A stretch of 64,000 nucleotides of DNA from Armatimonadota bacterium (GTDB lineage: Bacteria; Armatimonadota; SYMT01): positions 192,001 to 256,000 of the forward strand of contig JAWLHY010000003.1 in the NCBI GenBank assembly GCA_041690135.1, read 5' to 3'. Shown here one piece after another: positions 3,020 through 16,109 of the stretch. The translations under genes were made by a program, and so were the position numbers. Below the pieces are notes generated by a model. That model ran no database searches. It saw only the letters and a list, made by a program, of their open reading frames with translations, and was not told the origin of the DNA. Position 1 is the stretch's first letter; each line of letters starts with the position of its first letter.

Positions 3020-4683
3020 GTAACCGATACCCTTCCCGCACCACGTTCGCCATACTGGCCGCTGCCGCAAGTTTGACCGGCTGCCAACCCCCCCGGCAGT
3101 CTCAGCGTGCCCCGGCTCCGGAGACTCCGCAGTTCGTGAATCGGACCGCGGAGTCCGGGATCGACTTCGAGCAACGCAGCGGTGCGGAGAAGGTTCTCGA
3201 TATCGTGCAGACTTCCGCCGGCGGGGTTGGGGTCCTCGACTACGATGGCGACGGTTGGCTGGATCTCTACTTTGTGCAGGGGCAACACCGGAACGGCGCG
3301 GGCGGCGGTAACCGGCTATACCGGAACCGCGGCAACGGCACCTACGAGGATGTTACCGAACGCGCCGGGGTGCGCGGTCGCGGCTACGGCATGGGCTGCG
3401 CGGTCGGCGATTTCAATGCGGATGGATGGCCGGACCTCTTCGTCTGCAACCACGGAACCAGCCAACTGTTTCAGAACCGCGGTGATGGAACCTTTGAGGA
3501 TGTCACCGCGAAGACCGCCGCGGACGTGCGGGGGTGCAGCATCAGCGCGGTGTTCACCGACCTCGACCAGGATGGCTGGCCGGACCTGTACGTCGCCCGC
3601 TACATCCGCCTGGCGCCGGACAGTCGCATGCTCTGCACCAGCAGCGGCCTGCCGGTGAGCTGCGATCCGCAGGCCTACCCCGCGCAGCCCGGCGTGTTTC
3701 TCCGCAACGAGCAGGGCCGCCGCTTCGTGGACCGGACTCTTCCGGCGGATCTCCTGAATGAGGGCCGGGGAATGGCGGCCCTGGCGGCGCACCTGAACGA
3801 CGACTCCCGGTTGGACCTGTTCATTACCAATGACACGAGCGCCAACGCCCTGTTCCTGGCGAAGCCCGGTGGCAGCTTCGAGTCGGCGGGCGCGCTCTCC
3901 GGGGTAGCTTACGGCGAGTTGGGGGTGGCCGAAGCCAACATGGGGTGTGATGCCGGCGATTTCAACGGGGACGGCCGGCTCGATCTTTTTGTGGGCGTGA
4001 TGCAGGACCGCGCCAGCCTGCTGTTCCGGAATGAAGGCGGCGGGCTGTTTACCCTGGTGACCCGCGAGGCTGGGTTGGCCGAGGCCAGTAGTCCCGTCGT
4101 CACCTGGGGAGTGGGTTTCCTGGATTTCGATCAGGACGGCGACCTCGATCTCTTCCAGGCGAACGGGCACGTCAACACCCTCGCCGCGGAGGTCAACCCG
4201 ACGCACCGCTTTCTGCAGCCACGTCAGCTCTTCGAGAATGACGGAGCGGGGCGGTTTACGGATGCGAGCGCACGCGGCGGCCCCGCCATGACCACCCCCG
4301 CCGCGGGTCGCGGCGCCGCCTTCGGTGACCTGGACAACGACGGGGATGTAGACATCGTGGTGAACAACCTGGATGGCCCGCCGTCCGTGCTCTTCAACCA
4401 GGCGGAGAAGTCCGGAAGCCACTGGCTGCAGATACGCCTGGTGGGGAAGCATCCCAATTCCAGCCCTGAGGGCACGCTGGCACGGCTTTCCGTTGGTGAA
4501 CGCACCCTAACCCGCCACCTCCACCGCGGCTACAGCTATGCATCCGCCAGCGACCCCCGGCTCCACTTCGGCCTGGGACCCGCCACCCAGGTGGGACCGC
4601 TCGTCGTCACCTGGCCGGACGGTACTCGCCAGGAAGTCGCCGTACCGGGCATCGACCGGGAGTTGACCGTGCGCCAGCCCTAG
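3016..4683 (+). CDS. CRTAC1/ASPIC-UnbV family FG-GAP repeat lipoprotein
   Basis: ATG 3016 overlaps the TPR stop (ATGA); lipobox LTGC; DYDGDGWLDL, DFNGDGRLDL and DLDNDGDVD repeats; C-terminal YASASDPRLHFGLG...VTWPDG. Confidence 0.9.
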   Translation: MSNRYPSRTTFAILAAAASLTGCQPPRQSQRAPAPETPQFVNRTAESGIDFEQRSGAEKVLDIVQTSAGGVGVLDYDGDGWLDLYFVQGQHRNGAGGGNRLYRNRGNGTYEDVTERAGVRGRGYGMGCAVGDFNADGWPDLFVCNHGTSQLFQNRGDGTFEDVTAKTAADVRGCSISAVFTDLDQDGWPDLYVARYIRLAPDSRMLCTSSGLPVSCDPQAYPAQPGVFLRNEQGRRFVDRTLPADLLNEGRGMAALAAHLNDDSRLDLFITNDTSANALFLAKPGGSFESAGALSGVAYGELGVAEANMGCDAGDFNGDGRLDLFVGVMQDRASLLFRNEGGGLFTLVTREAGLAEASSPVVTWGVGFLDFDQDGDLDLFQANGHVNTLAAEVNPTHRFLQPRQLFENDGAGRFTDASARGGPAMTTPAAGRGAAFGDLDNDGDVDIVVNNLDGPPSVLFNQAEKSGSHWLQIRLVGKHPNSSPEGTLARLSVGERTLTRHLHRGYSYASASDPRLHFGLGPATQVGPLVVTWPDGTRQEVAVPGIDRELTVRQP

Positions 4684-12440: not shown

Positions 12441-13055
12441 TTATGGGATGCGCCTGGCGAGCGTGGAACCCGGGTCGTAGATCTCGATGAAGCTGTTGGG
12501 GGCGAGCAGGTCGCAGAAGAAGACGAAGCAATAACCGCCACCCGGCACGGCTGACTGGTAGCGAATTCCCTGTGCGGTAGCCGAGTCACAGACGGCCTGT
12601 CCCAACGATTGCGTCGGAGACAGGTTCCCAGCCGCCTGGAAGAGGCGGTACGGGCTGGCAAGCTCTGCCCGATTAGTCCCGAGGTTCGCCTGGACCGTCG
12701 GGTCGGACACGTCCAGGACTCGTTCAGCTTCCACTCTTGCCGTAAAGAGGACCGTTGCCGGTGGTCCAGGTACGGCCGCGGGATTGATCTGCTGAACCGC
12801 CAGATAGGCCTGATTCGCTTCCAGGTCGGCGGTCTGGCGGTCCTCTGCAAAGTAGATGGACGGCATCCCCCCGAGCGGGGTAAACCGGGCGCCCTTCCTG
12901 GGAGCTCCCTCGCAGAACAGGGGGTTCGGCGCGTAGACAACGGGGCTTCCTACCCCGTGGAGTGCCGCGTAATTGATGGCGCGATACAACGTGCCACGAA
13001 ACGGCTGGACGGGGAGACGGGGCAAGACCTTAAGGAGTTCCGGATAGGCTAGCAT
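12441..13055 (-). CDS. RES-domain toxin (NAD+ phosphorylase/mART family)
   Basis: LYRA, GARFTP, IYFAED..A..EA, VLDVSDP, TQSLG, GIRYQSA: the R, E and S residues are present. Confidence 0.88.
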   Translation of the reverse strand: MLAYPELLKVLPRLPVQPFRGTLYRAINYAALHGVGSPVVYAPNPLFCEGAPRKGARFTPLGGMPSIYFAEDRQTADLEANQAYLAVQQINPAAVPGPPATVLFTARVEAERVLDVSDPTVQANLGTNRAELASPYRLFQAAGNLSPTQSLGQAVCDSATAQGIRYQSAVPGGGYCFVFFCDLLAPNSFIEIYDPGSTLARRIP

Positions 13056-13849
13056 CAGGCCGGTTGACCCACGAGCAAGTCTTCCAGCAACTCCGCTACC
13101 ACTTCTCCCTGGCCGGAAGCAAGCAACTCGATTGGGGTCTTGCCGTCCAACTGCGGATTACGGACGTTGAGCCAGATGCGAAGCCCCTCCCGGGTCCCCA
13201 CCAGATGCCGTAATGCCGTGGCAATCCGCTCGAAGAGTGCCAGGCCCTTCTGCAGGCCGGGCGCGTCGGGGGTCTTCGAAACAGTCTGCGGATTCCGGCC
13301 CAGCAACATGGCGATACGACGCACCGGGAGACCAAACAGCTCGCTCACCCTGCGAGCGTCCAGCCGCCCACTCTCTGGATTGTGCAGGTCGAAAGCCACG
13401 TGTTCCAGCGGAGGATTGCCGACCGCTGGAACCGGACCTTGATTCCCAACAGGTTCCCGATGCTCGCGCTGCCGGGCTCCCAGGAGGCGATCTACCCGGT
13501 ACACAAGTTCCTCGAAATCCAGGGGGGATCGGACAAAGTCGGTGGCCGGCTCCTCGATAATCTCTGCCAGGCTTTCGTCCTTCAGGTCAGCTTCGAGGAT
13601 CAACATCGGCAGATCCGGCTGACGAACCTGGACCTCTCGGAGCGCGCGACGCGATTCCCCACTGGCCAGCTTGCTCCAATCCCACAGGACCATATCCACG
13701 GCGCCCAGCGTGCTGGCCCACTCGCGGTTCACCAGTGCCGGGGGCCGTACATATACCGATGTCGAATGCCAACGGCTTTCGAGGCGCCGGATCAGGTCCA
13801 GGTCGTCATCTACCAGGAGAAAGGTAAGCCCCTGTGCTGTTCCAGCCAT
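13055..13849 (-). CDS. Xre/MbcA/ParS-type antitoxin with N-terminal atypical receiver domain
   Basis: FLLVDDD...VLWD...DFVRSP receiver fold; HTH-like middle; C-terminal WLNVRNPQLDGKTPIELL; TGATG coupling to the RES gene. Confidence 0.85.
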   Translation of the reverse strand: MAGTAQGLTFLLVDDDLDLIRRLESRWHSTSVYVRPPALVNREWASTLGAVDMVLWDWSKLASGESRRALREVQVRQPDLPMLILEADLKDESLAEIIEEPATDFVRSPLDFEELVYRVDRLLGARQREHREPVGNQGPVPAVGNPPLEHVAFDLHNPESGRLDARRVSELFGLPVRRIAMLLGRNPQTVSKTPDAPGLQKGLALFERIATALRHLVGTREGLRIWLNVRNPQLDGKTPIELLASGQGEVVAELLEDLLVGQPA

Positions 13850-14150
13850 GTGTCAACCTTTCGCGGAATTCCTCGGTCCCTGGAGAACTGTACACCCGAT
13901 TCTTACCCAATGGCAACTCCATGTCCACTTCGTGTCTCGCATTCCCCGGCCTCCTGCCGGCATTACGTTCAGAAGCGCCTCCGGAGGGGGCCCTATAAGG
14001 ATTCAACCGGTTCTTGAGGGGAAGATCAGATACCATATTCCGGTTCAGGGGTGGAACTCTCGCGGCCCCGGATCACGAATTTCACCCCGGTAGTACCCGC
14101 GGGAAGCCCCTCGGGGAGCGGGAAGGGACGTTGGGAAGGGCAGTACGCGG

Positions 14151-15221
14151 ATGGGTACCCAGACGGTTTACAACGTTAACATTATTTCGGACACGGTCCT
14201 GCCAACCCCCCGGGAGGTGATGAGCGGCCTTCCGCTGACGGAAGCGCTGCAGGACCGTCTGGTGGGGTACCGCATCGCCCTGCAGCGGATTCTCGACCGG
14301 GAGGACCCGCGCCTGTTTGTGGTGGTGGGGCCCTGCTCCATCCACGATCCGGAGTCCGCGCTGGAGTACGCCGGCCGCCTGGCTCGCCTCGCCGAAGAGG
14401 TGAAGGACAGCATGCTGCTGGTGATGCGCGTCTACTTCGAGAAGCCGCGCACCGTGGCCGGGTGGAAGGGCCTCATCAACGATCCCTACCTGGACGACTC
14501 GTTCCGCATCGAGGAAGGTCTGGTCCGCGCCCGCACCCTGCTCCTGCAGCTCGCCGAGCTGGGCCTGCCCGTGGCGACCGAGGCCCTCGACCCGATCACG
14601 CCCCAGTACCACGGCGACCTGATCTCCTGGACCGCCATCGGCGCCCGCACCACGGAGTCGCAGACGCACCGGGAGATGGCGAGCGGCCTTTCCACCCCCG
14701 TCGCATTCAAGAACGGCACCGACGGCAACATCGAGGTGGCGATCAACGCGATCCGCTCTTCATCCACGCCCCACCGTTTCCTCGGCATCAACGTGGACGG
14801 CCAGGTTTCCGTGTTCCACACCCGCGGCAACCGCTACGGGCACGTGATGCTCCGGGGCGGCAAGCAGCCGAACTACGACGCCGAAAGCGTCGCCGCCGTT
14901 GAGGCCCGCCTGAAGGCCGCCGGTCTCCCGGCGAACATTACCGTGGACTGCAGCCACGGCAACTCCTCCAAGGACCACCGCCGTCAGCCCCTCGTTTTTC
15001 GGGATTGCGTGGACCAGATCCTCGCCGGAAACCGCTCGATCGTCGGCCTGATGCTGGAGAGCCACCTCTCCGAAGGCCGCCAGGACATCCCGGCGGACAA
15101 GTCGGAGCTGAAGTACGGAGTCTCCGTCACCGACGCCTGCATCGACTGGGAAACCACCGCGGAGCTGCTCCGCGAAGCGCACCAGAAGCTCGCTCCGGTG
15201 GTCGCCGCCCGACGGAAGTAA
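14151..15221 (+). CDS. aroG: 3-deoxy-7-phosphoheptulonate (DAHP) synthase, class I alpha (AroF/G/H type)
   Basis: GPCSIHD, MRVYFEKPRT, GWKGLINDP, IGARTTESQTHRE, VDCSHGNS, YGVSVTDAC. The isoform name is uncertain. Confidence 0.93.
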   Translation: MGTQTVYNVNIISDTVLPTPREVMSGLPLTEALQDRLVGYRIALQRILDREDPRLFVVVGPCSIHDPESALEYAGRLARLAEEVKDSMLLVMRVYFEKPRTVAGWKGLINDPYLDDSFRIEEGLVRARTLLLQLAELGLPVATEALDPITPQYHGDLISWTAIGARTTESQTHREMASGLSTPVAFKNGTDGNIEVAINAIRSSSTPHRFLGINVDGQVSVFHTRGNRYGHVMLRGGKQPNYDAESVAAVEARLKAAGLPANITVDCSHGNSSKDHRRQPLVFRDCVDQILAGNRSIVGLMLESHLSEGRQDIPADKSELKYGVSVTDACIDWETTAELLREAHQKLAPVVAARRK

Positions 15222-15917
15222 AGGCGCGCGCCGGACTCACCCCGAGCTGAACCTCGGGGCTCAAATACGGATCGGCTGCAGTTGCACTGCAGCCGGAACA
15301 CTTCGTGCGCAGGCATACGCCCGTACGGGTTGCACTGCGCCGCTCCCGTCCTGATCTGGCAGTGGCGACCCGGGCGACCAGGGGCGCCTGTTGCACCACA
15401 CATCGCTGCGGTGCAACCCGCCACCCCTTCGGGGTACCCGGCGTACGCTTGCGGGCCAGAGCCATTCGCGGGCAGCCTAACTGCCCACGATCGGATCTAC
15501 CCAGTAGCGCTCCCTTGGGGGAATGATCCAGGCGGGTAATCCAAGCGGGTCGCCCTCGGCATTGGGTGCCGCAGCAGGTTCTGCAAAGCGGGCGAACGGG
15601 GGCGAAGGTCGCGATGCGGAGACCAGGGGGATTGCCCTAGCTTCGCCGGGTAAACTCGCACTCGCTAAGGGACTGCTCAACAATATCCGCTACAGTTGGG
15701 CGAGTGACGACCCACAAGTGGGTGCCCCGGCTACACACGGCGAAGCCGACACCCCCACGGGGCGTAAACCTCCGTCGGCTGGGAACCACGTAGCCGTTAT
15801 TCCTTGACGGGTCCTAAGTGGTGCATCTAGCAAGTGGCGATCAGATTCGCACGTCGCTGAAACACGTCCGGCGGCTTAGGTTGGGACTCGTCCGGCAAGC
15901 CTGCTAAAGCGGCACTT

Positions 15918-16066
15918 GTAGGGAACGTCTCGCCGCAGCGTTCCGCCGTTGTGGAAGGTGATGCCGTCCTGCCAACTCGTTGCGGTTCGCGCCCAAGACC
16001 GGTCCGGGTTGGCACAACCGCTTCAGCTTCACCGATTGCGGAATGGAGCGGCGTCACATTCCCTAC
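15918..16066. repeat. REPIN/MITE-like element with GTAGGGAA...TTCCCTAC inverted ends, copy 1
   Basis: Its reverse complement aligns end to end with 39875..40022. Confidence 0.85.
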
Positions 16067-16109
16067 TGTACGGGCGTGTCAGGCCGTTCTGACTTCTGGT
16101 ACTGAGTCC

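Follow-up and report, generated by a model that had tools for sequence, protein, structure and literature searches.

The RES-Xre toxin-antitoxin systems, which include NatRT of Pseudomonas aeruginosa, MbcTA of Mycobacterium tuberculosis, ParST, the Xre-RES pair of Pseudomonas putida and VPA0769/0770, are the closest described relatives of the gene pair reported here, and share with it the toxin fold, the Arg, Tyr, Glu and Ser residues, and an antitoxin gene that comes first and is translationally coupled to the toxin gene. According to the MbcTA study (PMC6436930), the R27A, R47A and Y58A substitutions of MbcT abolish toxicity, the C-terminus of MbcA blocks the toxin active site, and MbcA ends at residue 113. 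The pair described here lies at positions 12441–13849 of a window of 64,000 nucleotides (the whole stretch of DNA that was analysed) from contig JAWLHY010000003.1 of an Armatimonadota bacterium, and is very probably a two-gene type II RES-Xre toxin-antitoxin module. Unlike the antitoxins of these described systems, its antitoxin carries an extra 131-residue receiver and a linker, which makes it roughly double the size of those with a solved structure. An earlier note on this DNA had stated that canonical RES-Xre antitoxins lack a receiver, which fits the 127 residues of the NatR chain 8qnl_A as well as the end of MbcA at residue 113 (PMC6436930).

Both genes are on the minus strand. The antitoxin gene (13055–13849) consists of 264 codons (coding part 13058–13849) and a TGA stop at 13055–13057, and its product is laid out as a receiver, a linker and an Xre/NatR/MbcA/ParS-type antitoxin, as indicated by the PF09722 match, the AlphaFold2 (AF2) model and the homologues. 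The RES-domain toxin gene (12441–13055) encodes 204 amino acids (coding part 12444–13055) followed by a stop. The two open reading frames (ORFs) overlap by one base at 13053–13057, where the plus strand reads CATCA and the coding strand therefore TGATG, with base 13055 common to the stop of the antitoxin and the start of the toxin. This confirms the TGATG-coupled two-gene unit described in the earlier note, and the sequence pattern is not due to chance.

The toxin matches the RES family (PF08808, COG5654) over residues 42–181 with 58.1 bits, above the cut-off of 23.2. The 12 best Foldseek matches of its AF2 model (predicted local distance difference test, pLDDT, 91.5; predicted template modelling score, pTM, 0.89) in the PDB are all solved RES toxins, with E values from 3.5e-9 to 3.7e-4; MbcT comes first (E 3.5e-9), followed by NatT, ParT, the P. 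putida RES protein and VPA0770. In these fold matches the identity to the window toxin is only 17–20%, and the profile match to MbcT reaches only E 0.0023. A single-sequence PDB search of the toxin gave noise: cytochrome b559 scored E 0.08, whereas MbcT got no better than 0.24. The score against the NCBIfam family Res_ParT_toxin (NF049844), 12.6 bits, is far below the cut-off of 110, and the toxin therefore belongs to a distinct RES subfamily.

Among 28 aligned toxins, R25, R57, Y68, T75 and E79 are invariant and S168 is nearly so. In the profile alignment to MbcT, R57, Y68 and E79 correspond to R47, Y58 and E69, respectively, while S168 and R25, which lie outside this alignment, presumably correspond to S126 and R27. 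The R, E and S motifs that the earlier note had recognised are thus present as R57, E79 and S168, the first two without exception among the 28 toxins. As modelled, the toxin is a RES-family, ADP-ribosyltransferase-like enzyme, and its conserved residues make it look active. Its homology to MbcT, NatT, ParT and the RES toxin of P. putida makes NAD+ consumption, or NAD+-dependent ADP-ribosylation of a target, the most likely activity.

The C-terminal half of the antitoxin is composed of an Xre-like helix-turn-helix (HTH) part and a C-terminal domain with a tail. The HTH part (residues 151–196; 13262–13399, minus strand) is delimited by alignments of homologues, in which G161, R162, K192, T193 and P194 are near-invariant, by the helices of the AF2 model (165–172, 176–183 and 187–192) and by a weak match to HTH_38 at residues 173–192 (17.6 bits, below the cut-off of 27). 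The following domain and tail (residues 197–264; 13058–13261, minus strand) are predicted to bind the toxin, on the basis of a match to Xre_MbcA_ParS_C (PF09722) at residues 212–256 (30.3 bits, above the cut-off of 24.5), the superposition on NatR and the complex model described below. Residues 136–262 of the model superpose on the whole NatR protein (8qnl_A) with a Z-score of 11.2, a root-mean-square deviation (rmsd) of 4.9 and 113 of 127 residues aligned, although a Z-score of about 11 is not conclusive by itself for helical proteins. The match to the NCBIfam family Xre_ParS_antitoxin (NF049845; 26.2 bits, residues 167–259) is below its cut-off of 90, so that both proteins of the window fall short of the NCBIfam RES/Xre subfamilies. 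Single-sequence PDB matches of the last 119 antitoxin residues (ankyrin and designed repeats) were noise as well, and for both proteins profiles and folds were needed. By the profile match and the model, residues 151–264 are a complete NatR/MbcA/ParS-type antitoxin, and the HTH-like region followed by an Xre/MbcA/ParS-type C-terminus, as first read from the sequence, is borne out by the PF09722 match and the NatR superposition.

In the model of the toxin-antitoxin complex, the interface score ipSAE is 0.87, as compared to 0.41 for the best control; of the solved complexes, 58 out of 80 attain the mark used for such scores, as do 2 of 110 mismatched pairs, and because related complexes are already solved, passing it may partly reflect likeness to them. 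The runs agree in at least 89% of the contacts, with a partner pLDDT of at least 86. On the toxin side, the interface comprises residues 25–28, 56–57, 68–70, 75–76, 79–84 and 168–171, which form the catalytic cleft. On the antitoxin side, the confident interface is confined to residues 211–264 and includes no receiver residue. The domain and tail at residues 211–264 are thus predicted to cover the active-site cleft of the toxin, in the same manner as the C-terminal tail of MbcA is reported to lie over the active site (PMC6436930).

This arrangement bears on the proposal of the earlier note that the pseudo-receiver is an input which releases the toxin. It would do so on binding a partner, phage protein or ligand, and the module would be a signal-gated or abortive-infection system. 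The receiver is indeed conserved and always tethered to the antitoxin, but the confident interface of the model contains none of its residues. We consider this proposal decidedly unlikely, also in view of the genomic surroundings described below.

The N-terminal part of the antitoxin folds, in the AF2 model, into an atypical receiver domain (residues 8–131; 13457–13828, minus strand), as judged from its topology, Foldseek and VIA-align matches and the family profile. It is connected to the HTH part by a linker (residues 132–150; 13400–13456, minus strand) with a low block pLDDT (54–61) and a variable sequence and length, ranging from 9 to 41 amino acids across 12 homologues. The antitoxin model, built from a 140-sequence alignment, has a mean pLDDT of 90.7, and its residues 8–131 show a clean (βα)5 topology with β1 at 8–13, β3 at 53–57, β4 at 82–87 and β5 at 103–107. 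Response_reg (PF00072) matches residues 11–119 with only 16.0 bits, below the cut-off of 30.2, but the alignment spans positions 2–110 of the 111 in the profile. With the model as query, Foldseek returned 115 matches at E≤0.001, and those listed are receiver domains and response regulators; the best is 2rdm_A (E 8.6e-6; template modelling score 0.73 on the target). VIA-align over 48,161 chains placed 3jte_A first (Z 13.5, rmsd 2.6, 118 residues aligned), with many other receivers next. The family profile matched PDB receivers down to E 1.1e-21 (PleD), and among the 60 matches listed, 59 are receivers or response regulators and the other one is a de novo protein. Weak NCBIfam matches to OmpR/PhoB/NtrC-type regulators fall mostly on residues ~50–134, the α3–α5 part. 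Thus, the profile and structure searches of the two halves, proposed in the earlier note, returned a receiver fold for the N-terminal half and a NatR-like fold for the C-terminal half; as modelled, the N-terminal domain has a genuine receiver fold and is attached through a flexible linker.

D14, D15, D16, D57, E86 and S108-P109 are all present in the translation, and in the model D14/D15, D57, E86 and S108-P109 sit at the ends of β1, β3, β4 and β5, respectively. The acidic pair after β1 and the acceptor Asp after β3 are therefore kept (D14, D15 and D57), whereas the Thr/Ser position after β4 is occupied by E86 and the Lys position after β5 by S108, so that the acidic pocket D14–D16, the acceptor-position D57 and the two substitutions all stand as the earlier note had them. 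In the alignment of the family profile to PleD, the family consensus also carries Ser at the Lys position. In CheY, the conserved Thr and Lys drive the phosphorylation-dependent switch. Missing catalytic residues and the lack of an adjacent kinase are features that the window receiver shares with atypical receivers found among its matches (PleD domain 2, AmiR, VpsT and RssB), but none of these is an antitoxin, and the window receiver still has the acceptor Asp and the acidic pair. Further atypical or pseudo-receivers are the PsR domains of KaiA/CikA, HP1043 and ChxR.

As compared to its closest homologue (P0002), the antitoxin is 89% identical overall, the receiver 95% and the linker 47%. Because the receiver is so much better preserved than the linker beside it, it is probably under constraint and functional. 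In the β5–α5 region, D104, V106, P109, E114, R118 and L122 are invariant in 13 sequences.

Another candidate for the N-terminal domain comes from two reports (PMC9503650, PMC6436930), which describe RES enzymes that can make ADP-ribose-1''-phosphate, and a receiver-like domain, cRec, with a predicted ADP-ribose cyclic phosphate substrate, which never occurs with a kinase; the domain could then be cRec-like and act enzymatically on ADP-ribose phosphates made by the toxin. However, the family profile fits classical two-component receivers (E 1e-21), some members retain the full Asp/Thr/Lys set, the residues of the active site vary between members, and the 25 top-ranking families in either set of flanking genes include no Nudix, 2H or RNA-repair context. 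On these grounds we rejected the cRec identity, which seems extremely improbable.

The receiver-antitoxin fusion is a large family, not a one-off. Among 1.84 billion cluster representatives (clusters at 50% identity), the antitoxin matched 910 clusters at E≤0.001, of which 524 reached E≤1e-10. At least 105 residues precede the Xre part in 140 of 191 proteins; of these long homologues, 129 match PF09722, 66 match PF00072 at E≤0.01 (best E 7.5e-25) and 11 match the Xre-like-HTH family PF20432. A receiver hidden Markov model built from the family recognised 136 of the 191 proteins, among which the acceptor Asp is kept in 95, the Thr/Ser in 42 and the Lys in 23. All three residues are present in 11, the Asp-only pattern of the window protein in 48 and none of the three in 34. 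Degenerate receivers form the majority among them. Since 11 of the 136 keep Asp/Thr/Lys and 66 of the 140 match Response_reg, the ancestor was probably a true receiver. Longer fused forms (463–2000 amino acids) did not appear, none of 8000 candidates scoring, which is weak evidence, and the protein atlas contained only a 61-member PF09722 cluster.

In a FastTree phylogeny restricted to the Xre part (133 rows, with few columns and many open forks), the window antitoxin falls into a well-supported clade of 13 rows, of which 11 are Asp-only, one has none of the residues and one has Asp and Thr, while the Lys-bearing receivers gather in two other clades. On this tree the state changed 22 times for Asp, 25 times for Thr/Ser and 9 times for Lys. 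In the close clade, the acceptor position is Ser in P0006 and His in the fragment P0061. The Lys is missing from all 15 homologues from the phylum; Asn occupies the acceptor position in 4 of these, and in 9 neither of the first two pocket positions is Asp or Glu (GAG in 5 of the 9).

These patterns are relevant to the possibility that D57 is still phosphorylated, by an orphan histidine kinase encoded elsewhere or a small phosphodonor such as acetyl phosphate, with an effect on dimerisation, DNA binding or stability that would couple the module to a signal. D14, D15, D16 and D57 are kept in the window protein and the pocket is kept in its closest clade, and the family includes both the 11 full Asp/Thr/Lys members and strong Response_reg matches. 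In addition, DigR, a receiver-HTH_Xre regulator, is described as working with an orphan kinase (PMC3509222). On the other hand, the replacement of Thr/Ser and Lys by E86 and S108, the Ser, His and Asn residues at the acceptor position of relatives, the loss of the pocket in 9 of the 15 phylum homologues and the absence of a recurrent kinase in the flanks all argue against a working phospho-acceptor. On balance, phosphorylation of D57 appears unlikely, though the acidic pocket retained in this clade keeps a phospho- or metal-dependent role in view.

Other long Xre/ParS antitoxins, namely the proteins of alignment A3 and those of loci L022, L035 and L046, carry different N-terminal domains. Single members have ArsR/MarR-type HTHs, VpsR, Cas3_HD or Sigma70_r2 (Pfam) in this place, and several have ~150 N-terminal residues without a Pfam assignment. 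The N-terminus of the Xre/ParS antitoxin family thus seems, from these sequences, to be a swap site.

The earlier note had proposed to count how often such fused antitoxins stand next to RES genes. Pattern scans yielded 46 loci, 39 of them distinct; 24 have a receiver-positive antitoxin, 23 of which have assessable downstream DNA. A RES ORF lies directly downstream in 19 of these 23. It is missing from this place in L004, L020, L021 and L025, two of which have less than 400 bases of room. Overall, Pfam RES was found in 32 of the 39 downstream ORFs, that of the window included. The one-base stop/start overlap recurs in 10 of the 19 receiver-positive RES loci, and in the remaining 9 the toxin start lies anywhere from 36 bases before to 38 bases after the point at which the antitoxin ORF ends. 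Of 401 sampled genomes of the phylum, 16 carry full-length matches, the window's own genome included, in a patchy distribution over six families. At the 15 of these loci that were retrieved, RES is directly downstream in 14 (12 intact, L091 frameshifted and L089 truncated) and absent in L093; another locus from the genomes is a duplicate of one in the scanned set and counts a single time, and the scanned metagenome loci and the genome loci may otherwise overlap. The proposed count therefore came out at 19 of 23 scanned loci and 14 of 15 genome loci.

At several loci the fused antitoxin is intact and the toxin is not: L091 has a frameshifted toxin, L089 and L006 one of about half the length, L011 a split one and L093 none. 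A broken toxin beside an intact antitoxin is the usual decay pattern of toxin-antitoxin pairs.

The receiver might instead serve only solubility or stability, as a passive or degenerating add-on to a selfish addiction module. Repeated loss of the catalytic residues would agree with this, as would the broken or missing toxins at L091, L089, L093, L011 and L006 and the pairing of receiver-less antitoxins with the same toxin family (L033). However, the receiver fold and the β5–α5 motif are kept across phyla, with the six residues invariant in the 13 sequences; the preservation of the receiver relative to the linker and the confident model likewise speak for a domain in use. We therefore regard a passive receiver as very unlikely.

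The neighbours of the module in the window are a glucuronyl-esterase-like hydrolase, a 3-deoxy-D-arabino-heptulosonate 7-phosphate (DAHP) synthase, FdsD and a formate dehydrogenase subunit. No histidine kinase is adjacent to the module in the window, kinases encoded elsewhere not having been searched for. HATPase_c accounts for 2 of the 107 ORFs that flank the 15 genome loci and is not among the families with at least two members in the 56 flanking ORFs of the scanned loci (at most 1 of 56). Thus, among the 25 commonest families of each set, no kinase recurs beside the module. The flanks of the scanned loci contain three integrases, two reverse transcriptases and two SIR2_2 proteins among their 56 ORFs. 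The G+C content of the module is 62.7%, as compared to 66.8% for the window, the locus of the closest relative is not syntenic with the window, and a strong match is found in only 2 of 40 relatives. Because of its neighbours, its G+C content, the lack of synteny and the few strong matches among relatives, the module behaves as a small accessory cassette.

The integrases, reverse transcriptases and SIR2_2 proteins in the flanks of some relatives, together with the lower G+C content and the patchy distribution (16 of 401 genomes), fit a mobile accessory element, and to that extent also the release of the toxin by a sensing receiver. Against such release, housekeeping genes surround the module in the window and, in most cases, at the 15 genome loci; no conserved partner gene accompanies it, further catalytic residues are gone in most relatives, and neither protein matched any family in PADLOC-DB 2.0 at E≤1.

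In L003, the locus of the closest relative, two direct repeats of 84 bases (757–840 and 3128–3211; 94% identical) flank the pair at 1394–2889. They may mark a cassette boundary or be a repeated intergenic element, and no repeat of this type flanks the copy in the window. The window's own genome has only one other RES gene, encoding 216 amino acids, in locus L001 (1330–2540; contig C2, ~195.1–196.3 kb). There the order is reversed, with the toxin first and a receiver-less Xre-like ORF of 148 amino acids 114 bases later, and this ORF does not reach PF09722 at E≤0.001. The DAHP synthase gene (14151–15221 of the window) adjoins the module, and chorismate mutase/prephenate dehydratase flanks 2 of the 15 genome loci; this is probably a coincidence or reflects the shared ancestry of close genomes. 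Between the DAHP synthase gene and fdsD, ~0.9 kb (15222–16109) contain no ORF of more than 146 amino acids and no Rfam or tRNA match.

Taken as a whole, the best explanation, which we hold to be slightly better than an even bet, is a RES-Xre operon with an atypical receiver that tunes oligomerisation or operator binding. In this explanation, the antitoxin C-terminal domain and tail (residues 211–264) would cover the active-site cleft of the toxin, while the receiver would not grip the toxin but act as in a receiver-HTH response regulator. It would be a dimerisation or regulatory module that sets the oligomeric state of the antitoxin and its binding to the operator, and would thereby set the antitoxin-to-toxin balance by autoregulation. 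The receiver probably works without canonical phosphorylation. In OmpR/PhoB-type regulators, the α4-β5-α5 face is the usual dimer interface.

The specific assignment of the receiver to control of dimerisation and operator binding, as opposed to holding the toxin, is put forward more tentatively, at a little less than an even chance. We favor it because the antitoxin has the receiver-linker-HTH order of DNA-binding response regulators and because DigR provides a precedent. DigR of Myxococcus xanthus, a rare receiver plus HTH_Xre protein, has the same order of an N-terminal receiver, a linker and a C-terminal Xre-kind HTH (PMC3509222). Both halves of the antitoxin also align loosely with StyR and FixJ in Foldseek. 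As compared to such receiver-HTH regulators, the output domain in the window is additionally an antitoxin with a predicted toxin-binding extension, and its receiver lacks the Thr/Ser and the Lys. The classical response-regulator logic fits the observations at least as well as direct gating of the toxin.

Several points weigh against this explanation. The pTM of the antitoxin model is 0.58, which means that the receiver and antitoxin halves are not fixed relative to each other, and the receiver diverges faster than the Xre part. A 1:1 complex model is blind to contacts of higher-order complexes, and residues that it does not name in the interface are uncertain rather than free. In the closest clade, P0001–P0005 and P0007 keep the acidic pocket as DDD or DDN together with the acceptor Asp; this retention suggests selection for metal or phosphoryl binding and would fit a working phospho-acceptor. 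The missing neighbour kinase proves little, since DigR, too, has its kinase gene at a distance in the genome (PMC3509222). No conserved operator was found upstream of the antitoxin gene, and the sole palindrome there, 8 bp long (GGAATTCC, 13865–13872), is within chance expectation. Finally, the data show the layout of the genes, the folds, the conserved residues, the recurring gene pair and the size of the family, whereas toxicity, NAD+ chemistry, neutralisation and the entire role of the receiver are inferred.

Repeats upstream of the antitoxin gene are short and imperfect, all within chance, and Rfam and tRNA scans of the 9–17 kb region gave no matches. Two overlapping sigma-70-like promoter matches (13887–13927, minus strand) lie upstream of the antitoxin gene; the region has 2 sites by the consensus scan, whereas shuffled sequences average 0.4, and as conservation lends them no support, they serve as a lead only. 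Among sequencing runs, no RNA run was listed as containing the sequence, and one DNA run from a soil metagenome shares 0.06 of its words.

We found no paper that describes a receiver-fused Xre/MbcA/ParS antitoxin, but subscription journals, architecture databases and supplements were outside the search, so that such proteins may be listed there. The words 'receiver' and 'CheY' are absent from Makarova 2009, and in the source databases the annotation of such proteins goes no further than 'response regulator', 'CheY-like' or 'MbcA/ParS/Xre antitoxin family protein'. The core of the module is an ordinary RES-Xre system, and the receiver fusion is a widespread variant for which we found no description.

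How type II toxins come free of their antitoxins has long been debated, and a natural fusion of a receiver to an antitoxin lends itself directly to testing this. The family spans apparently phosphorylatable to fully degenerate receivers, all on the same RES-Xre core, so that matched comparisons within it could tell if signalling extends to the toxin, to the operator or to neither of them. Members with Asp/Thr/Lys are better subjects for such tests than the copy in the window. The fusion could link cell signalling to toxin control. Across this widespread class, a two-component-type input might decide when the NAD+-consuming RES toxin is freed, through phosphorylation in the Asp/Thr/Lys members and through a partner or ligand in the degenerate ones, although we think this unlikely. 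If the receiver only aids dimerisation, the fusion would be a modest addition to the outputs of atypical receivers; if the signal-input reading is true, toxin activation would be a direct output of signalling.

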